From assembly GCA_036785375.1 (NCBI GenBank), contig JAWMAR010000462.1:1240001-1304000 (forward strand): 64,000 nt of DNA. Reading direction: 5' to 3'. Shown piece by piece: positions 5,031 to 63,276 of the stretch; the first letter of the stretch is position 1; every line of letters starts with the position of its first letter. Source of the stretch: Leucoraja ocellata. Lineage: Eukaryota. Both the position numbers and the translations under genes were made by a program. The notes below the pieces were generated by a model that saw only the letters and a program-made list of their open reading frames with translations, had not been told where the DNA came from and did no database searches.

Positions 5031-5470
5031 CATACCACAATAACTCTTAATTATTAAAATTATTCAGCTGTAGAAATGTTTGATATTTTTAATTCCCCAG
5101 CATTGACACAAGGCATTAGGTAAATTAAAACATCAGGGACTTGGCTGTGCCTTGTTTTTTATTTCCCTCCTCAGTTTCTGAGCCTTGGGATGCTGTTGCC
5201 ATGACTCTAATCTCCTCAGTGACAGAGATCCACTCATTATAGCACATGCCTTCCAAATCTGAAAGAAAATTAGAAAATGCTGGAAATATTCAGCAAGTCA
5301 GGCCTCATCTGTGGGAAGAGCAATGGAGCTAATGTTTCAGGTCGAAGACCCTTCATTAGAGACGGGAAGTTCCTGTGCTTCTACTGTTCTATGTTCTACA
5401 AGAGCTATATGTGTAAAGGCTCAATAACCATGAGATTTACCAAAAAAATTGAATAATTTAAACCTTTATG

Positions 5471-5666
5471 AAGATAGACACAAAATGCTGGAGTAACGCA
5501 GCGGGACAGGCAAGAATGGGTGACGTTTCGGGTCAAGACCCTTCTTCAGACTGAAACGTCACATGACCCATTCCTTCTACCCAGAGATGTTGCCTGTCAC
5601 ACTGAGTTACTCCAGCATTTTGTCTATCTTCGGTATAAACCAGCATCTGCAGTTCCTTTCTACACA
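5471..5666. mobile_element. Penelope-like terminal-repeat insertion, fold-back, with intact hammerhead core on the - strand (5522..5549)
   Basis: Inverted arms agacacaaaatgctggagtaac... / ...gttactccagcattttgtctatct; the - strand reads CTGAAGA-AGGGTCTTGACCC-GAAACGTC. Confidence 0.7.
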
Positions 5667-6697
5667 TTTATTCCTTTGTGAAATTAGAATGAACGTTAAT
5701 TAGAATTATCCATGTGGAATTATGTCTAATTTTAAGCAGTTATAACTTTTAAACATAGTAATAATCTCATTGGAAATGCTGTTTTATAACAATTCTTAAT
5801 TATTGCAAATATTCAGTTGTAAGCAATTGATGGTGTGGCAATAACACCAGTTATGTTATGAACATGGATGATCATTTTTCCTTTTTACTATTGATAACAT
5901 TGGGTAAATTTATCCTTTTGAGTTGAAGAGCCAACAGACCTGATTGTTCTAAGTTTCTCAATTTCAAAACTGAAAACTGACTTTTGTTGCACTTTATAAC
6001 TTTGGTAAAAAATGGCTTGACTTTCAAGGTGATTAATGATCATGACAAATTTGTAACTTTATTTAGATCAATGGAAATTAATATTCCGTTATTTCATGTT
6101 GAGATCAGTCTTTCCTTGGTGCGGATTATTAGGGAAAAGTCTAATACAAAGGAGAGACAATATTGAGCTCAAAACTAGTGTTGAAATAGGGTCCTGACCC
6201 GAAGCATCTTCCATACATTTCCCTCCACAGATGCTGCCTGACTTGCTGAGTCCCTCCTATTTTAATTTTTCCCAAGCACTGATGAAATACATCAACTTCC
6301 TACAGCATTTTGCTGCAAGAACCAGACAGCATGCTATTATTCTGCTTTGAGGAAAATAATAATCAATGTTAAATTTTAAAATATTCACCATGTACCTATG
6401 TCATTGAGTGATCTGTTATAAGTTTTCCTGTTTTGTTATTCAAAGGTGATTTGCAGTGAGCTTGTATTGTATATTTATTACTCAGATTTTAATTTTTAAC
6501 AAAGTTGGACCATGATACAAATTAACGAATCATGATAATTCACTTCTGAAATCTTCCAAATGAGTCATTTAATTGTCCAAATTATGGCAAGGCAATCATT
6601 TAAATAATAACAATGGAAACTTAAAAATTTTATATATATCCATTGGAAAGTTCTTATTACTTGTTGTATTTTTAAAACCATGTTTGTATTTTTATGA

Positions 6698-9219: not shown

Positions 9220-9362
9220 ATACCGTTGCATTGTCAGCTACCCTAGCGTTTTGGAGGTGTTGTTCCTCCAGTTTATGTGCGGCCTTATTATGGGAATGGT
9301 GGAGGCCCAGGCCAGAAAGGATGTTGTTGAATGGGGAGGGGGAGTTAAAATGATTTGCAATC
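9220..9362 (-). mobile_element. Penelope-like GIY-YIG endonuclease C-terminal remnant
   Basis: Similar to 12317..12455 (tgttcctccagttt..., ggaggcccaggccagaaagg, ggggagttaaaatgatt). Confidence 0.6.
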
Positions 9363-9518
9363 CACCGCATGGACCACATGTGTTAAAGTTTCTCTCAAAC
9401 TCGATAGATACAAATTGCTAGAGTAACTTAGCAGGACAGGCAGCATCTCTGGAGAGAAGGAATGGGTGACGTTTCGCGTCAAGACTCTTCTTCAGAGATG
9501 CTGCCTGTTCTGCTGAAT

Positions 9519-10369: not shown

Positions 10370-10576
10370 TCCCGTGACGTAACAGCAGCCGCGTTTGCCC
10401 CGGAGCCGCACGCCCCGCCCCTCCCCGTGACGTCAGGCGGCGACGCGGGTGAGAGGTGACGTCACAGGAGCTGCGGTTGCCCCGGAGCCGGACGCCCGCC
10501 CCCTCCCCGTGACGTCAGGCGGCGGCGTCGTGGGTGAGAGGTGACGCGGCTCGAGCGGCTGGCGGCCGTTGGGAAG
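10370..10576 (+). promoter_or_regulatory. QSOX2 CpG-island promoter/5' UTR with duplicated CRE and GC-box unit
   Basis: CpG-dense; TGACGTCA at 10428, 10457 and 10510; TGACGTAA at 10375; CCCGCCCC boxes; directly upstream of ATG 10577. Confidence 0.8.
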
Positions 10577-10850
10577 ATGGTGGCGCCGGGTCGGGGCAAG
10601 TGCTCGAGCTCCCGTGCTCTGCTCGCCCTCACCGCCGCCACCCTCACGCTGCTGGGGCAGCTGCTGCGCCATGGACACGCCGCCAGCCTGTACGGCGGGG
10701 AGGACGCGGTGGTCATCCTGGAGGCCCAGGCGGTCAAGGCGCTGCTGGCCAACTCTCCCAGCGCCTGGGTGGTGGAGTTCTACTCGTCCTGGTGCGGCCA
10801 CTGCGTTAGCTTCGCCCCCACCTGGAGAACGCTGGCCCGCGATGTCCAAG
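10577..10850 (+). CDS. QSOX2: Sulfhydryl oxidase 2, exon 1 (signal/anchor + thioredoxin WCGHC)
   Basis: aagATGG Kozak context; MVAPGRGK...[28 protein letters not shown]; donor G|gtgagg, phase 1. Confidence 0.93.
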
Positions 10851-10954
10851 GTGAGGCCCGCAGGGGAACTAACACCGTTACCTCGGGGCACACTAAGTGC
10901 TCGACTAACTCAGCGGGTCTCCGCAGGTCAGGCGGCATATGTTGGTTTTCGGCT

Positions 10955-11240
10955 CTGAAGTAGGGTCTCGACTCGAAACGTCACCCATTCTTTCTCTCCA
11001 GAGATGCTGCCAGTCCCGCTGAGTTACTCCAGCATTTTATGTCTGGACAGGCGACGTGTCGGGTCGGGACTCTTCAGAAGAAAAGAAACCTCGCCTATCC
11101 ATGATCTCCTGAGAGACCCTTCTTCAGACTGGTTACAAGCTCCTGACCCAAAGCGACACCCAGACGCTGAGATGTTGCCTCGCCCACTGAGTTACCCCAG
11201 CACTTTGTGTCTTTTTTTTGTAAACCAGCATTACAGTTCT
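10955..11240. mobile_element. Cluster of Penelope-like terminal repeats at the start of intron 1
   Basis: ctgaagtagggtctcgactcgaaacgtcacccattc...gctgagttactccagcatttt plus further partial copies in both orientations. Confidence 0.65.
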
Positions 11241-12290
11241 TTATGTCTCCAGTTACATTGGGATGGTCCCGGAACTGACTGTGAGCCTTGATCTGTGTTA
11301 TGAATGTTTTGGATTTCCACGTCACTAAAGCAGCAAAATATGCCGTAGCCTCACAATCCGTCTATTAAGAGAGAGAAGAGATTGCAGATGCTGGAATCTT
11401 GAGCAAAAAAAAAGTGGTGGATTAACGCAATTGATCTGTGGAGGGAGTGGACAGCCAAGATTTCAGGTCAGGACGCTGAGGACGTCGACTGTCCACTTAC
11501 TCCACTGATCCGCTGAGTGACTCCAGTACTTTGTGCGTTTTTTTGTAAATCGTGTGATTATTATGTATTTACTCTTAGTTGCTCTGAGTGATGTACTTGG
11601 TGTGTTGGTGATCAGGAGAATCTGGAGGGATGGAAGATAAGGGGAATGTTGATGGTGAGATGCTGCTGTTCTATGATCTAGATCCAGTCATGATGAAGGA
11701 ACAGCAGTGTACTCTCTAGTCAAGGCGACACTCGACCAGCAGGGGGACCAGGTCAGAGTGTTCCCAAAAAACAAAGTGTTGGAAGTGTTCAGGCTGATTG
11801 TAGTAGGAAGAGGAAAACTGGTCTCAGATAAGGTGTGGAGTGAAATGTAAAGCCGGAGAAAGGGATATAACAGCAAATGTCCGCTGTTCACTTCCGCTGG
11901 ATTGGCACCTTCAGCTCCCTCTTTAATTTACCTTAGTTTCTATCTTTTTTTTACTGTAAATCTAGGTAGCTGTGCCTCACGGTCACCCCGACTGGCACAA
12001 TAAATTGCAGATCAAAACCTGGCCGTTTTCTATGTTTTTAACGGGTGGGAAAGTGCGTGTTTTCCCATCCACTAACATGTACCGGATGTCTAGCATGTCC
12101 TCCACTTGAGATTTTCGGTCACGTGGGTGCGGATCTACGCTCTAGTGACCTTTCGTGAAATCACCCTATAGTGGAAGGGGACAGGGGGGAACAAGGGATG
12201 GGATAGTGAGGAGTGGAAGATGGTGGGGTGAGATAATGGATGCACATCAAGGTGGGGATGCTGAGGAGGGAGATATTACAGGTGGGGGTG

Positions 12291-12555
12291 TTACATAAAA
12301 TTAGAGAATTCAATGTTCATACCATTGGATTGTAAGCTACATAAGCAGAGTACAAGGTGCTGTTCCTCCAATTTGCATAGGGCCTCACTCTGGCAATGGA
12401 GGAGGCCACGGACAGAAAGGTTAGTATGGGAAGGGGAGTTAAAATGATTAGCAACTGGTTTGATCCCGGAGGCCTTGGCAGACACACGCAAGTGTTCGGC
12501 GAAATAATCACCTGATCTGCATTTGGTGTTGCTGATGTAAAGGAAGCAGTTCCTT
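12291..12555 (-). mobile_element. Penelope-like element, GIY-YIG endonuclease C-terminus
   Basis: ORF 12291..12599(-): ...GDYFAEHLR...PVANHFNSPSH...GLLHCQSEA..KLEEQHL.....SLQ.NGMNIEFSNF, typical of the PLE GIY-YIG end. Confidence 0.8.
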
Positions 12556-12679
12556 GTATCTACATTTAAATTGGGATTGTCCCAATCATGGTTGTGCATG
12601 TCAGACTTTTGCTCTGCTGTTGAACGTTTTGGATTACCACAGCTTTAAAACTATAAAACTTTATTTCACCAATCAATCT

Positions 12680-16560: not shown

Positions 16561-19500
16561 TCAGGTGAATAGATGTTAAATGGCTTATTTACATAAGATG
16601 CGCCGAGACCGTAAGAACAAGTTGATGATGTAAGTCAACAGTTACCTTTCAGCTTGCAGAATTTTTTTCATGCTGCTGTTGACTGGTATTGCAGTAGAAA
16701 GAAATGTGCAAAGCTAATACTTTACCACTTAGCAGCTTTGTAATTACGTTGTTACTATCGCAGTGAACATTTTCAAGTTGCTATCAAAAGAGCAAAGCAA
16801 AAACACTGTGAATATTTTGTCTTGTTTTAAGTTTTCAGCTCAATTTAATGCATCAGTTGTATTCTCCATACTTTGATGTAAGCAGTATTAAAGGAATGCT
16901 TTAATTTTTCATCTTAGTTTTTATTCCAAACCCCATTTAACTATTGCCAGTTAATGCTTGTGTCTACACATGACATAGATACTATTTCTTCCGTTTTGGT
17001 AATGGGGGAGTGAGTGCACACTTTTGTAATTTGGTGATGTGACACCTCATCAGTGCCAGGCTAATTGGATTCCAGACAATTACATCATTAGATACTGGCA
17101 ATTCATATTTCAGCAATGAGCTGTGGGGTAAGATATTAAGCACTCACCTTATGAAAGCCTTTTTAGGATTCTTCTGAAACTCTATCTTACAAGAAATGAT
17201 TTTCTTCACTGGCTTATATCCTATGCTTGTGGATATATTTTTTCCTTCCTTTGCTTTCCGACTACTTCCAAAGGTGCTGCCACTATCTGCTGGAGTAAAC
17301 TCAGTGGCTGACTTGCTGAAGAAGGGTCTCGATCCGAAAAGTCACTCATTCCTTCTCTCCAGAGATGCTGCCTCACCTGCTGAGTTACTTCAACATTTTG
17401 TGTCTACCGCTGACTTGCTGAGTAACTCCAGCACTTTGGGTTTTCCTCAAGATTCCAGCATCTGTAGTTCCTTGTGTCACTATTCTACTGCCACTATATG
17501 TTGTGTTTGCTCCACCAAGCTGGCGTGAGGTAGAATCTGTGTTTCTCTTATGATTTTGTGTTGTTACTTCTAATGCATGGGGACAGGGTTCGAGGGATGG
17601 AAATTGTCACTTCAATTGAACACAATGAATAAAGTGTCCTACTGCTTGTTTATGCTTCCGTATATATAGCATAGAATGTATTGAGTAATGAGATGATTGT
17701 GCAAACTATAATTAACGTCTAGATGTCTGATACCTGAAAGATTTGTTTACTGGGAAAATACTTACAAAGATGGCAACTGTTTTTAAAAGGTGCTGCTCAT
17801 TGATCCACATATTGCTTGGGTATATGAAGGCAAATAGGCAAATTAATTGGCACCAAATCTATATAGGAGATGAATATTTTTTTTTAAATTTAAACTGCCC
17901 CAGGAAGGCATCTTAAAATTCATTTTGTTTTTCCTGTAGTCCCTAAAATGTGAATTTGCTGGTTCCAGCCAGCATGACATGTCTTTTTAAAAAAAACAGA
18001 ATACAAACCTATGCAGTTTCCTAATCTACCTCAAGTATATGACATTATATTTGTCCTCAGTAGATGACTCTTAAGTCGCATCAAAATTGGCAAGCAATTT
18101 TATTGCTTTGATGAAAGAACTGATAGTACCTTTTATTATCTCAGGCGTTCTTTAGGATAAAACAGAATTTTGATCGTTTTTCAAGTGGTACAACGTAATC
18201 TCAAAGACAGCCACGTTTTTGCATTATCTGCAAATGAAATAGTTCAATTTGAAAGAGAAAATTGTCGGCAGTGTTAATCTGTTGAATGCTACAGATTTCT
18301 GCCCATAACTCGAGTGCAATCAAAATCCACTTATTGTTTACAACCTTCCAATTATGCAGTTGTTTAAAATTGTGCAATGTGAAGTTTGGCCTTTAATCTC
18401 AGGAGCTCTGATTTTTCCTTTCAGCTGCCTGAAATTATTTTTATGTGGCTTTTTTCCTGAGTGATTCTGTTGAGAAGGAAAATATACTTTTCCAGTTCTA
18501 ACTCATTTACCTACCAGTAATTTCTCATTGTGATCAAACCTGGCATTATTGAATGTACTATAATCAATTATTTTACAGTTGACCTGCGAATGGACCATAT
18601 GATCATTATTACTTTGGACCTCTGGAGTCTTGCCTCACTATTATCACCAAGCACAATAATTAAAACAAGTTTTCCCATCCAATCCAATCCCTGACATATT
18701 TATTAAATACAATATTTAAGTGTTAATAGCCTAATGGTCTTGCTAACCTTCACCTTTGATTGCATTTTTTTAAACACCGTTTGCCTTTACAGAAATTAAT
18801 GTGACCTTTTAATTGGATTTCAAAGTTATCGGTTTTACCTATTGAGATTGCAGATGAACATTTTCTTTGCATTTAATAAAGTAAAGCTCATTCTATCCTT
18901 TGTTTCTCAACAGTTTATCGCTGACAATTTAAGCATTAGCAGAAAGAAATCCTGAAATCCTGCCAGTCTTGGTTAATCTTAATTCCTGTAATTTAAGTAA
19001 TTACAGCTATTACCAATTCTCAGTAATTTCTAATATAATTCACACATACTCTCCAAACATATGCCCGATTCTCAATGTAGTTTTCAACAGCACTCTTATT
19101 AAACTCGGTTAATGAAAAAGAGTCAAGTCAAGAGTCAAGAGAGTTTTATTGTCATGTGTCCCAGATAGGACAATGAAATTCTTGCTTGCTGCAGACCTTC
19201 GAAAAAAGATTTTATGCAGCCACTTGGCTTCCTTTTTCAATTTCTTTGAATAATTTTTAAAAAATAATATTTTCTCGTTTAATCAGTCTGGAATGGTGTG
19301 TGGCAATCCAGAACATCTTTGCAATTTCCTTTGTTTTGTTACCCAATGAATAATTAGCCAATTAACATGTGAATACTTTATGGTTCCCTTAATTTTCATT
19401 TTCTAAATGGACAGCTAAAATCAAAGGAAATTGTAGAACGCAATCATCTTACTGCTTTTGTAATATTGGAGACTTTAAAAAAAGGAAATAAAAGCAACAG

Positions 19501-25906: not shown

Positions 25907-26590
25907 AAGTAAGCATGCAGGTACAGCAGGCAGTGAAGAAAGTGAATGGCATGTTGACCTTTATAACAAGAGGAATCTAATATAAGAGCAAAGAGGCCCT
26001 TCTGCAGTTGTACAGAGCCCTAGTGAGACCACACCTGGAGTATTGTGTGCAGTTTTGGTCACCTAATTTGAGGAAGGACATTCTTTCTATTGAGGGAGTG
26101 CAGCGTAAGTTTACAAGGTTAATTCCCGGGATGGCGGGACTGTCATATGCTGAGAGAATGGAGCAGCTGGGCTTGTACACTTTGGAGTTTAGAAGGATGA
26201 GAGGGAATCTTATTGAAACATATAAGATTATTAAGGGTTTGGACACGCTAGAGGCAGGAAACATGTTCCCGATGTTGGGAGAGTCCAGAACCAGGGGTCA
26301 CAGTTTAAGAATAAGGAGTAAGCCATTTAGAACGGAGACTAGGAAACACTTTTTTTCACAGAGAGTGGTGAGTCTGTGGAATTCTCTGCCTCAGAGGGCG
26401 GTGGAGGCAGGTTCTCTGGATGCTTTCAAGAGAGAGCTAGATAGGGCTCTTAAAAATAGTGGAGTCAGGGGATATGTGGAGAAGGCAGGATCGGGGTACT
26501 GATTGGGGATGATCAGCCATGATCACATTGAATGGCGGTGCTGGCTCGAAGGGCCAAATGGCCTACTCCTGCACCTATTGTCTATTGTCT
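25907..26590 (+). mobile_element. Young 5'-truncated CR1 LINE
   Basis: Open ORF 26008..26502 (YRALVRPHLEYCVQFWSP...RRMRGNLIETYKI...SRTRGHSLRI...FFSQRVVSLWNSLP); (ctattgt)n tail; near-identical to 58671..59214. Confidence 0.92.
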
Positions 26591-40819: not shown

Positions 40820-41830
40820 AATCAAAACAATGGTGGAATAACTCAGCAGGTCAGGCAGAATATGTGGAGGGTATGGATAGGTAACATTTCAGTTTGGGAT
40901 TCTTCTTCAGACTCCAATCCCTCCACAGATGCAGCCTGACCCACTGAGTTACTTCAGCACTTTAAGAATCCTTTATTTCATGATCTTTACAGTAAGCAAG
41001 TTGAGCCACAACTCTTTGACAAAAAAAAAAAACTCCTGGAGAAACTCAGTGGGCCATGCAGCATCTGTAAAGCAAAATGAACAGATGACGTTTTGGGTCA
41101 AGATCCTTCTTCAGACTGCTGCCTGGCCCGCTGAGTTACCCCACCAGTTTGTTTTTATTTACTCAAAATTCCAGCATCTGCTGTTTCTTGTGTGTCTGTT
41201 TTGTACTATATGTACCACAGGGGGGAGCTAATGTGCAGGAAAGAACTGCAGATGCTGGTTTTAATCGAAGGTAGACACAAATTGCTGGAGAAACTCAGCA
41301 GGTCAGGCAGCATCTCTGGAAAGAAGGGATGGGTGACGCTTCTGGTTGAGACCCTTCTTCATGCTTTCCTTTGACATTAGTGCTTTGTATAAAACAAACT
41401 GTTTTTGCTGCTCTTAAGAATTTTGGGGAACCCGGCCCGAATTTCCTATTGCCAATGCAAAAATTTACACTATGTTACATAGAATATTGTTACAATATGT
41501 TAGATAGAATATTGCAGAAGGCAGCTGTACAGTGATGCAATTACTTTTTTTGCTGACATTCCAGGAAACCGGGAAGAATGCCTGGACTGGTTTCAGAAAC
41601 ATAGAACAATGAAGCAATTAATTTCACTTGGCTAAGCCATGCCAATATAACAGCAAGGTAGACACCAAAAGCTGGAGTAACTCAGCGGGACAAGTACCAT
41701 AAGGGTCTCAACACAAAACGTCACCCATTCCTTCTCTCCAGAGATGCTGCCTGTCCCTCTCAGTTACTCCAGCATTTTGTGTCTATCTTTGGTTTAAACC
41801 AGCATCTGCAGTTCCTTCCTACATATAAAA
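40820..41830. mobile_element. Cluster of at least four Penelope-like terminal repeats, several fold-back
   Basis: Repeated actcagc..gtcaggcagcatct / gctgagttac..cagca arms and degenerate gggtc..gacccttcttcagac motifs. Confidence 0.65.
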
Positions 41831-45183: not shown

Positions 45184-47424
45184 TATGTGCCAACCTTTAA
45201 TGTTTAAAGATCAGCAGAGTACCCACAATGTAAAAGATTTTATTTCCGTGCAGTAGCTTTGGTCAATTGAGGGAAAGGGCATTGAAGATCAGGGGGTCCT
45301 CAAGAGCAATTGAGAAAGTTAAATCTTTTCAAGGATACTTCACACACATCCTTGAATCATTTATATTCTGTCGTCTTAGAAATTTCATCCTGTTAAAGGG
45401 CTCCAAATAGAACATCTGTTTCAAGATTCTGGTGTCAGGAATGTAATTACCATTGCCTCACCAACAGAGAGCCAACTGACTCTAGTCTGAAGAAGGGTCT
45501 AGACCCAAAACATCACCCATTCCTTTTTTCCAGAGAGTCTGTTCAGTTAGCCTCTGTACAGAGCTGGGATATATAACTGCGATCCTCTTCCTTCCAGTTG
45601 GAGTGGATCATCTGCTTTTATTCCATCTCCCTGCTGTTTGTTGGTATTTACATCGACACAACTGCCTTCAATTAATCCAGATCTTGAGGCTTATATCTCT
45701 CCAACTCTGTATACGTGCGCTTGTGGACTAACAGGACAGTCACTGTTGCTTAGTTAGTGTATGGGGTATATCGGGATTATGAGGGGGGGCAGCGAGTATC
45801 ATTTAATTTTATTTGGAGAGGGGGCATCTCAGGATCAAAATATTATATACCTCAACAAATGCAAATGAGGTTGCGCTAACATTCCATGTTCACATAACCA
45901 GAATTAGATTCCTTATGATTAAACGTGAATATTTCAATTGGCGGAATTGTAACAGTTAACTTAACCTGGCTTTGCATATCGTATGGTGGTGTAAACATGT
46001 AATATGTAAATTTCCTGCTTTGTTCTGCACCCCCATTGTTGAGTGAGGTCATTGTTTGGAAGTTGTATTCAATTACCACTTGAATGCAAGTGGACTGTTA
46101 AGTACTGTTTTGCTAATGTCAGAAAAGAAAGGAGAGGGCATCTTCTCAAGCACGTATTTCTGAATTATTGCTCCCCAATATAGATGAATCGTTGTATTTT
46201 TTGTAAAGGGCCACCCTTAGAGGGCAGTTTGATCAGGCTTTGTTGTGTATTTTATTCCATATGTATTTTTCCCTATCTATACCATATTCTGAATACCCAA
46301 GCCTGTCTAATGATCCATAAAATTGATCCCATTTACTAACACAAGGCCAAATGGCGAGAACAATGATTGATACTGACAAACGTACAATAACACCACAGCA
46401 AGGGTGTGCACAAATTAATTGTGCTCTGCAGCTGCAGCTACACTAGTCAACATGTAGTGGCTACTTGTGTGATTCAGCCTGTATATCTGAATAGTAGTCT
46501 GCTTTTTGTTTTGTGCGGTATGAAGGAAATATAGACTAAGGCTTACAAGACATCTGTGTTCGATCGTTGTTTATTTTATTTTGCCAATATAAGCAGCACA
46601 GGACTTGCATGTCCATTGTGTTTTTGTAACTGACTGTTTGGAGGGATCAAGTAAAAGAGGTCGCTGTGACACCCAGGAGATGGTCGCATTTGAAAATTCA
46701 GCCCTTTACGCACTGCCTGCACTCGCCCCATCTTTGGAGAATTATGACATGCAACCTGTCATCTGTCGACCAATAACCAGTGAAAGGGAGAGTCCTGCAT
46801 TCACAATCCACAAAGTAGGAGTCAGTTGGTTTTGTTTTGCTTGTGGTGTAATGAATTGTTAACCAGGCCCAAGGCCTGTACAAAAAAGGCTTCAAAGAAA
46901 CAGCTGGTAGAGGAGGCAGTTACAACTGAATAATGCATCTGTCAGCGTACCTTTAAAGGCACTGTCTACATGAGACTTTCCGAAGTTAACCTTATGTTAA
47001 GAACCAGGACTGGTGTCTTTAGTTTTTCTACATTGATGCTGCAATATTTATAGCAGTTCCTGTGCAGCCTTTGCCATCACAGTTTTGCACAGAAATTAGA
47101 TTGATTCGAGTTTTCCTCATCTGGAAACGTGGAAAATATGACATTGTCATGATATAGCTTGGGCATTAAATGCTTTTAATAATATATACTGGACAGTTCC
47201 CCTCGTTAATTATTCTCAACAATGCTGTTATTTTGCAATGCAAGAGAGGGCTTCAGTTTTCTCTAAATGAAAATTAATTTACACCTTCATAGGTTGTACA
47301 TTTACAATTTTTTGGGGTGAATTCTACTGGCAGAAGAATTCTCACAGCCCAGCTGCATATAAAATATAATGACATAAAATGTACCTTGAATCTGGCATAA
47401 ACGTTAAATTAATATAGAATAATC

Positions 47425-56266: not shown

Positions 56267-56945
56267 ATAGAAACATAGAAACATAGAAATTAGGTGCAGG
56301 AGTAGGCCATTCGGCCCTTCGAGCCTGCACCGCCATTCAATATGATCATGGCTGATCATCCAACTCAGTATCCCATACCTGCCTTCTCTCCATACCCCCT
56401 GATCCCCTTAGCCACAAGGGCCACATCTAACTCCCTCTTAAATATAGCCAATGAACTGGCCTCAACTACCCTCTGTGGCAGAGAGTTCCAGAGATTCACC
56501 ACTCTCTGTGTGAAAAAAGTTCTTCTCATCTCGGTTTTAAAGGATTTCCCCCTTATCCTTAAGCTGTGACCCCTTGTCCTGGACTTCCCTAACATCGGGA
56601 ACAATCTTCCTGCATCTAGCCTGTCCAACCCCTTAAGAATTTTGTAAGTTTCTATAAGATCCCCTCTCAATCTCATAAATTCTAGAGAGTATAAACCAAG
56701 TCTGTCCAGTCTTTCTTCATAAGACAGTCCTGACATCCCAGGAATCAGTCTGGTGAACCGTCTCTGCATTCCCTCTATGGCAATAATGTCCTTCCTCAGA
56801 TTTGGAGACCAAAACTGTACGCAATACTCCAGGTGTGGTCACACCAAGACCCTGTACAACTGCAGTAGAACCTCTCTGCTCCTATACTCAAATCATTTTG
56901 CAATGAAAGCTAACATACCATTCGTTTTCTTTACTGCCTGCTGCA
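56267..56945 (-). mobile_element. Young 5'-truncated CR1 LINE
   Basis: ORF 56365..56769(-): QRRFTRLIPGMSGLSYEERLDRLGLYSLE...FFTQRVVNLWNSLP; (tttctatg)n tail. Confidence 0.92.
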
Positions 56946-58670: not shown

Positions 58671-59214
58671 TAGTATTGTGTGCAGTTTTGGTCCGCGAAT
58701 TTGAGGAAGGACATTATTGCTATTGAGGGAGTGCAGCGTAGGTTTACAAGGTTAATTCCCAGGATGGCGGGACTGTCATATGCTGAGAGAATGGAGGGGC
58801 TGGGCTTGTATACTCTGGTGTTTAGAAGGATGAGAGGATTGAAACATATAAGATTATTAAGGGTTTGGACACGAGAGGCAGGAAACATGTTCCCGATGTT
58901 GGGGGAGTCCAGAACCAGGGGGCCACTGTGTAAGAATAAGGGGTAAGCCATTTAAAACGGAGATGAGAAAACACTTTTTTACACAGAGAGTTGTGAGTCT
59001 GTGGAATTCTCTGCCTCAGAGGGCGGTGGAGGCAGGTTCTCTAGATAATTTCAAGAGAGAGCTAGATAGGGCTCTTAAAGATAGCGGAGTCAGGAGGTAT
59101 GGGGAGAAGGCAGGAACAGGGTACTGATTGGGGATGATCAGCCATGATCACATTGAATGGCGGTGCTGGCTCGAAGGGCCGAATGGCCTACTCCTGCACC
59201 TATTGTCTATTGTT
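58671..59214 (+). mobile_element. 5'-truncated CR1 LINE
   Basis: Near-identical to 26039..26590; ctattgtctattgt tail. Confidence 0.9.
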
Positions 59215-62548: not shown

Positions 62549-63276
62549 TCCGGGAATATGATTTTTTTTTGTGTGGGTAGTGGGCGGCAGCGGTCATTGG
62601 TGTTCAATGTGGAACTCAAGTTGAGGAGAAATAAAATAGGGTCGTTTTCAGAAATTGCTCGATCGGCAATTATACCCTATCCGCAGGCAGACGGTATCGT
62701 CTGCACCGCCTTCGCCCTGTTTAATCGCACGGTTCCTAACATTATGTAAACGTTTTTTATAGGTAACCCAGACCACCGATTTAAAAAAAAATGTTGAGTC
62801 TGTAACTTCTCTCCCGGTCCCTTACAGCCTTTATTTTTACATTGCGTCTCCTTCACCGTTCTCCTCGCTGCAGTATTATTTATTTAGGAGGAAGTTGTCG
62901 CTGGTATTCTGAGACACTAAGGAACTGCAGATGCCTGTTTACAAAATAGAAACACACACAAAGTGCTGGAATAACTAACTCAGCAGAACAGGCAGCATCT
63001 GAGGACATGGATAGGCGACGTTTTGAATCTGAGGAAGGGTCGTGTCCAAAAACGTGGCCGATGCATGTCTCGACCGACCGAGTTACTCCAGCACTCTGAG
63101 CATAGAACATAGATCAGAAATAGGCCCTTCAGCCCATGATGTGAATTTAGATTGCTTGATATTTAGTCATTTGCACAACCAGTAGAATATGTGGTGTGTA
63201 TATGGGTGAGAATTACAGAACGATACTGTGACGATTCTTACACTTAGCAGTCCAAACCAACGTTTAAAACGGTGGT

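Follow-up and report, generated by a model that had tools for sequence, protein, structure and literature searches.

Minimal hammerhead motifs in the pLTR of a Neptune-like Penelope-like element in the genome of the skate Leucoraja ocellata

Minimal hammerhead ribozymes (min-HHRs) have been described in both pLTRs of metazoan Penelope-like elements (PLEs) (Cervera and de la Pena, 2014; PMC4209133). Among PLEs, a CX2-5CxxC linker is absent from Penelope and Poseidon in the available text of Craig et al. (2021; PMC8557442), a two-site tail signature has been tied to internal initiation by the reverse transcriptase (RT) (Frangieh et al., 2024; PMC11167929), and Penelope of D. virilis has an internal promoter according to the accessible part of PMC2377424. 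The role of the PLE hammerheads is described as still unsettled in the available sections of PMC8557442 and PMC11167929. Here we analyzed a window of 64,000 nucleotides from Leucoraja ocellata (assembly GCA_036785375.1, contig JAWMAR010000462.1, positions 1,240,001 to 1,304,000), to which the positions below refer unless another locus is named. The motif at 5522-5549 is probably a minimal type I hammerhead pattern located in the pLTR of a PLE with a Neptune-type linker, this particular copy being a short inverted insertion predicted not to fold as a ribozyme; this reading includes the model of RNA start and priming set out below.

A preliminary description had reported CUGANGA, a hairpin, GAAA, a GUC triplet, and a loopless stem III on the minus strand at 5522..5549, and inspection of the sequence confirmed all of these, 5549-5522 (-) reading CUGAAGA-A-GGGU-CUUG-ACCC-GAAA-CGUC with GU before and AC after. 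The elements are as follows.

5522..5549, minus strand: minimal hammerhead core, from the sequence, a strict descriptor, and the consensus shown in Fig. S3 of PMC4209133
5549-5543, 5542, and 5529-5526, minus strand: CUGAAGA, the extra A, and GAAA of this core
5541-5538 with 5533-5530, minus strand: helix II, four base pairs closed by a CUUG loop
5522, minus strand: C17, with the predicted cut between 5522 and 5521; stem III is the palindromic ACGU
5550..5551, minus strand: 5' strand of helix I (GU, two base pairs), the G at 5551 being position -2, the 5'-junction peak of the family
5520..5521, minus strand: 3' strand of helix I (AC), the third pair being an A-C mismatch

The core CUGANGA...GAAA...UH of this copy was retained in every subfamily consensus, as was its stem III palindrome ACGU; the extra A between positions 9 and 10.1 was present in 237 of 246 copies, and the pair G10.1-C11.1 was G-C in the consensus. 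As for helix II, the hairpin stood, and the five-pair GGGTC/GACCC reading first proposed for it, which closes a strained 2-nt loop and for which no ViennaRNA score was obtainable, did not. Helix II is better read as four pairs with a tetraloop, and with CUUG, CUCG, UUCG, or CCCG as the loop this reading is workable across the family. The earlier caution that helix I offers only about two pairs was borne out, exactly two being formed in 27 of 49 intact cores and five or more in none; the helix consisted of a G-C plus a U-A or U-G pair, and a third pair formed in 14 of 176 copies. By eye, no complement that could form a loop II pseudoknot was conserved between subfamilies.

The loose pattern CUGANGA-N5-30-GAAA was found 11 times in the window against 5.4 expected, a weak excess, as one of 100 shuffles scored as high. 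The exact 28-nt pattern matched 28,827 times across the genome (3.44 Gb), its reversed control not once, and the strict descriptor yielded 49 matches in a sample of 1.2 Mb (120 stretches at round coordinates on larger contigs) versus none in the reversed sequence. An Rfam search at E <= 1 gave seven matches in the window, none of them a hammerhead; minimal hammerheads are without the stems modelled in the Rfam hammerhead families. Scaled to the assembly, the 523 profile matches and 49 intact cores of the 1.2-Mb sample suggest about 1.5e6 arms and 1.4e5 intact cores, figures that haplotype duplicates (e.g., loci L031 and L032) may inflate up to twofold. The latter two loci are near-identical and lie on different contigs (C462 and C243), as haplotype or segmental duplicates in the assembly. 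From the 523 matches, 450 were aligned for the junction analysis, and the 246 that cover the core were used for the pair counts.

The most abundant repeat of the window indeed holds the motif, as had been claimed (top families D1-D4, with 45 profile matches over 2,944 bases). The nine further variants that had been listed, at 5333(-), 9468(-), 10955(+), 13370(-), 17316(+), 41087(-), 45487(+), 59736(-), and 63029(+), were present, and an intact core was found in none of them; among all ten copies only 5549(-) combined the core with four helix II pairs and a paired stem III. The decayed copies and the PLE remnants of the window include the following.

9468..9495, minus strand: decayed copy, three of four helix II pairs
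17316..17343, plus strand: decayed copy, broken stem III palindrome
10955..10982, plus strand: decayed copy with A9 changed and inverted arms, just within the first intron of a thioredoxin-domain gene
41087..41114, minus strand: decayed copy, G12 lost via CpG decay
45487..45514, plus strand: decayed copy, G12 and stem III lost
63029..63056, plus strand: decayed copy, G12 lost, triplet GUG
12297..12545, minus strand: endonuclease (GIY-YIG) end of the parent PLE, decayed (58% identity by tblastn, E 2e-21)
9254..9361, minus strand: second endonuclease remnant (E 2e-4), after which come an inverted piece of the tail and a truncated motif (9134-9101)

The presence of PLE GIY-YIG remnants in the window, also noted beforehand, was thus verified at 12545-12297(-) and 9361-9254(-). 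Directly downstream of the remnant at 12297..12545 the motif was not found, other sequence interrupting; by eye, an element of about 300 nt at 11880-12170 interrupts the pLTR there and recurs inverted in L053:1100-1420. The gene mentioned above starts with a GC-rich first exon at 10538-10960 (+), encoding a thioredoxin-domain protein with a signal-peptide-like start and a CGHC motif (Pfam Thioredoxin, E 7.5e-10), which we take to resemble a QSOX sulfhydryl oxidase. The 5522-5549 motif lies about 5 kb upstream of this exon, and most other copies lie downstream. Just before the exon, at 10374-10527, two direct GC-rich 72-nt repeats (D18) carry GTGACGTCA sites, presumably CRE-like. Longer dispersed repeats of another family, 75-94% alike, are located at 25924-26588, 56283-56943, and 58672-59213.

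Genome searches that took first the endonuclease remnant (12294-12560) and next a longer relative as query recovered frames reaching about 760 aa. The 751-aa frame of locus L051 matched RVT_1 (E 5e-4) and GIY-YIG (E 8e-4), both under the Pfam curated cut-off, and had 1,526 homologues, among which RVT_1 (in many) and GIY-YIG occur; its named relatives at 62-70% identity came from Chiloscyllium, Rhincodon, Hypanus, and Mobula. The PDB sequence search and NCBIfam each gave no match for the PLE ORF. The L051 translation contains a CX4CxxC linker, CNRKKCNTC, before the endonuclease, in line with the Neptune criterion CX2-5CxxC (PMC8557442), and because such a linker is absent from Penelope and Poseidon, the parent PLE appears Neptune-like, a placement drawn from this one linker motif. 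A 27-nt tandem repeat array lies within the N-terminal part of the PLE ORF at L055:1459-1990, and a genome search with the RVT_1 Pfam profile did not lead to the PLE and instead brought up numerous RT frames, some 1,270 aa long and almost identical to one another, that look like a very young LINE-like family.

The physical linkage between the motif and PLE RT/GIY-YIG ORFs was clear from both sides. At 31 of 38 sampled endonuclease ends, a sense repeat followed within 400 nt downstream, compared with 8% expected, and an antisense one at 4 of 38; when the ORF was traced upstream, the motif lay about 360 nt ahead of the query in 9 of 20 loci and continued via the tail into the ORF. The frame opens some 163 nt past C3; the earliest ATG that shares the frame of the 5' ORF part likewise lies about 163 nt downstream. 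In five of eight fetched loci, RT and GIY-YIG were found, frameshifted, with the motif at both ends 3.8-4.0 kb apart, so that the element is organized as motif, about 160 nt, ORF, motif, and tail. pLTRs, partial tandems, an inverted 5' copy, and a tail of 30-40 nt were all seen in this family. PLE introns are known, and L220, L225, and L228 carry AAG-GTATG at about +160 from C3, a possible splice donor that overlaps the ATG at +163 and coincides with a codon boundary in a short frame that opens at +50.

The suggestion that the SINE-looking family is a PLE terminus at very high copy number therefore holds, and what falls away is a separate SINE: the repeat forms the pLTR/5' end of an autonomous PLE, of which full-length copies persist. 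It would be highly improbable for the short repeat to be an independent SINE or a tandem retrozyme borrowing the PLE machinery. Solo copies do far outnumber coding ones, and a chondrichthyan retrozyme family has been reported in the available part of bioRxiv 10.64898/2026.07.22.740005; against this, the solos align colinearly with the opening 95-135 nt of the full-length PLE, have no sequence of their own, and are not arranged in tandem arrays.

The ends of the copies were then informative on the ends of the PLE RNA. Two 3' ends about 35 nt apart were evident, with 102 of 235 ends at +90-99 and 89 at +120-134. The hazard of 5' junctions was 94/136 in -10..-1 and 96/232 in 0..+9, versus 0-0.17 per 10 nt elsewhere, in a table that omits 52 matches with a pyrimidine-rich flank; this clustering at the front edge of the motif was seen in young and older subfamilies alike. 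Genome-wide exact-core counts of 2,720, 3,567, 8,279, 4,126, and 36,033 corresponded after correction to about 4.7k (0), 5.2k (-1), 13.9k (-2), and 5.6k (-3) junctions, so that the peak falls on G(-2), the outermost base of the two-pair helix I, both among solos and among full-length copies. The zone is broad (-4..+2), YCAGT being retained upstream in the 36,033 exact-core copies. Of the nine loci whose motif runs into the ORF, five (two possibly representing one insertion) start at the motif edge in unrelated flank; the full-length copies L238 and L241 start at G(-2) and one 5'-complete copy at -3. Junctions showed no excess at the cleavage site, where seven were counted at +27..+29 against 7.4 expected, and cleaved RNA as the RT template was rejected on this ground. 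As to a flanking G derived from a cap, the counts did not establish one: G preceded GT in 55 of 100 cases (30 expected; 27/64 without GG contexts, p 0.03), and it preceded AGT in 28 of 100 (27 expected), without excess.

RNA runs, poly(A)/oligo-dT libraries possibly from related species and dominated by read-through of many genomic copies, showed that the repeat is common in poly(A) RNA, with loose ends at -3/-2, +93, and +128 and, in the two paired-end runs, a similar depth on both strands over the motif; a pile-up of read starts or ends was not seen in these reads. Short duplications of the first core letters stand directly before the core at L071:7278(-), L087:548(-), and L108:6198(-) (positions in the reversed loci) and look as if RT had jumped templates at the RNA 5' end. 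Among the matches listed, GAAGT directly preceded the core in 29 of 100.

An alternative explanation of the 5' pile-up is a processing or RT-stop site, in which the pyrimidine tract and CAG act as a splice acceptor or an RT block. Such a tract ending in (C)AG-T does precede the core in every endonuclease-linked reference, and helix I in D. virilis marks the end of an intron, with the start site 46 nt before that intron. Splicing, however, predicts a shared exon before T(-1), and the junction with a stop-codon donor (the one donor examined) gave two matches, neither endonuclease-linked; moreover, the flanks of the -1/0 junctions share no sequence, the peak is at -2 and not at -1, and the same peak occurs in subfamilies with different upstream tracts. 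A splice-acceptor origin of the edge is consequently disfavoured for the stop-codon donor, and processing or RT stop in general seems rather unlikely. The start of the copies at the front edge of the motif likely marks the start of the PLE RNA.

According to the model of RNA start and priming, the PLE RNA would start at about A(-3)/G(-2), which would place the hammerhead at the extreme 5' end with a helix I 5' strand of only 2-3 nt. RT would prime inside the uncut RNA at sites some 93 and 129 nt past the core, for which Anolis PLE offers an in vitro analogue (PMC11167929). Priming at the first site would produce a 95-135-nt cDNA running off the 5' end, i.e., a solo, and so account for the great number of solos; full-length copies would result from priming at the second site. 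Any cleavage would require a dimer or an element protein and would take place in master transcripts, not in the dispersed copies. That copies start at the front edge of the ribozyme and not at its cut site argues for uncut RNA as the template and points to a role at the 5' end. At the motif edge, TCAGTCT resembles an Initiator, which presumably would place +1 at A(-3) and not at G(-2). This offset, the breadth of the junction zone, the mixed counts for a cap-derived G, and the read-through character of the RNA libraries weigh against the model.

Folding predictions bear on whether the family hammerhead still cuts. Even in intact family members the hammerhead fold was not the predicted minimum (-3.7 to -4.5 versus -8 to -10 kcal/mol), nor in dimers (-6 to -7 versus a cofold of -21 to -29 kcal/mol), and for this reason the activity of master elements is unproven. 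The predicted minimum was a competing hairpin that pairs GGGU with +28..+31 and is compatible with 195-213 of about 235 copies per pair. The motif might be a vestige, its cutting ability lost and its sequence retained as a promoter, 5'UTR, or protein-binding element, a reading to which we assign some weight without favoring it. Besides the competing hairpin, it is backed by the silence of the cleavage site in junctions and reads and by a helix I of G-C plus U-A/U-G, weaker than the 2-bp helices in the available part of Fig. S3 of PMC4209133, all of which have two G-C pairs. On the other hand, CUGAAGA-A, GAAA, ACGU, and a permitted H17 persist in all subfamily consensuses despite changes in the loop and 3' flank, the hammerhead of the Anolis PLE requires protein for cleavage and likewise lacks a read signal (PMC11167929), and published PLE hammerheads include ones with a 2-bp helix I (PMC4209133). 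Between subfamily consensuses the core was invariant, two one-sided U-A to U-G changes (one in helix II and one in helix I) kept pairing, and no pairing-breaking change was found.

At the level of single copies, the picture was one of neutral decay at CpGs. The most variable core positions were CpGs, including G12 (70% kept), and pairing in helices I, II, and III equaled the independence expectation at every pair in the 246 aligned copies (e.g., 203/234 = 0.87 versus 0.86). Covariation in helix II was not seen: no two-sided change was found at any level, either in the 246 copies or between subfamily consensuses, and the TT, TC, and TA spacer variants noted beforehand are ascribed to decay because they arise at CpG sites and pairing does not exceed independence. 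Nor were the dispersed copies arranged for the supposed cleavage as dimers, since a direct copy lay within 120 nt upstream in only 4 of 450 and an antisense arm in 155 of 450.

The insertion that carries the 5522-5549 copy belongs to the latter type. It spans 196 nt (5470-5665), with the motif in its sense arm and the tail in its antisense arm.

5470..5553, minus strand: sense arm of a solo pLTR, starting at about -3/-4, with the short 3' end at about +93 (family numbering) and an internal deletion
5553..5665, plus strand: inverted (antisense) arm, which extends from GAAAC as far as the long 3' end and carries the tail
5465..5469, minus strand: candidate 5-bp target-site duplication ATAAA read from the flanks, the other copy being at 5667-5671, with an extra T at 5666

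A transcript of 5470-5665 was predicted to form one long hairpin (MFE -94.6 kcal/mol, z -10), in which the antisense arm 5553..5665 pairs with GAAACGUCA and the downstream arm. The predicted pair probability in this context was about 0.04 for helix II and 0 for helix I, which speaks against an active copy; folding into the ribozyme is thus predicted to be blocked by the antisense arm, and even without this arm the competing hairpin was still predicted to win. On the unique flanks, no reads were found in two runs, sampled at 5-6% and possibly from related species, which is weak evidence. This single copy gave no sign of function.

These results also weigh on the idea that the dispersed copies, among them 5522-5549, are catalytically active and cut host transcripts in dimeric form. 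In its favor are the sheer estimate of intact cores, the frequency of the repeat in poly(A) RNA, and 73 exact-core copies, some of them duplicates, in which upstream sequence complementary to the 3' strand extends helix I; among 25 of these viewed, 20 had at least 7 contiguous pairs and four had more than 30. The neutral CpG decay of G12 without covariation, the rarity of direct neighbours, the predicted sequestration of the 5522-5549 core by its antisense arm, and the lack of reads on its flanks in the two sampled runs together render this idea very improbable.

The long-helix-I copies merit separate description. In 16 of the 25 viewed, the predicted probability was at least 0.8 for helix II and at least 0.7 for the first helix I pair. 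Their enrichment is at most twofold, because the 73 junctions seen compare with about 37 expected from flank composition and the pattern selects for pairing by construction. In the inverted insertions L195, L204, L208, and L217, the arm meets the core in register for helix I, with 33-67 contiguous pairs. A more far-reaching proposal, which we offer tentatively and regard as possible more than probable, is that the PLE mRNA begins at the first helix I base, so that the hammerhead would be a 5'-terminal, protein-gated self-decapping switch; the roughly one million solos would then be strong-stop-like cDNAs, recording to the single base where the RNA starts and where RT primes at its two sites, and some inverted insertions, having rebuilt a hammerhead whose helix I is perfect over as much as 67 bp, could cut host pre-mRNAs.

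Among known systems, the arrangement of the motif in both pLTRs is already published (PMC4209133), and the skate family is a further member. With the min-HHRs described there it shares CUGANGA, the extra nucleotide between 9 and 10.1, G10.1-C11.1, and GAAA, together with a loopless palindromic stem III, location in both pLTRs, mostly dispersed single motifs, and opposite-strand pairs. It differs in a helix II of four pairs, whereas Schistosoma has 7-8 bp, and in a helix I of two pairs with one G-C, which lies within the 2-6 bp of the published alignment but is weaker. The estimated 1.4e5 intact cores contrast with about 4,000 in coelacanth and about 9,000 in Xenopus (PMC4209133), counts obtained by different methods, and at about 1e5 they constitute a dense genomic record. 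Shark, skate, Callorhinchus, and Leucoraja have no entry in the available supplement file 2 of PMC4209133, and literature searches, with supplements and repeat libraries outside their scope, returned no paper on this PLE family in cartilaginous fish or on the strong-stop reading. The non-LTR retrozymes of bioRxiv 10.64898/2026.07.22.740005 are similar in being non-coding, PLE-derived, and equipped with a type I hammerhead; they form tandem arrays, whereas a direct neighbour is exceptional here (4/450).

Like the Neptune-clade EN+ PLEs (Craig et al., 2021), the skate element has an RT followed by a C-terminal GIY-YIG with the CX2-5CxxC linker, and both show 5' truncation, an inverted 5' copy, partial tandems, and a 30-40-nt tail; the hammerhead edge as the dominant 5' end, seen here, is not described for Neptune PLEs in the available text of PMC8557442. 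Compared with the Anolis Poseidon element PAc (Frangieh et al., 2024), which has an ATG inside the core, the skate core reads CUGAAGA and the first in-frame ATG lies about 163 nt downstream, the two clades being different. The skate PLE nevertheless resembles PAc in its two proposed internal RT start sites bracketing the tail, in the hammerhead at the pLTR-ORF junction, in the probable use of uncut RNA as substrate, and in the lack of reads at the cleavage site (PMC11167929).
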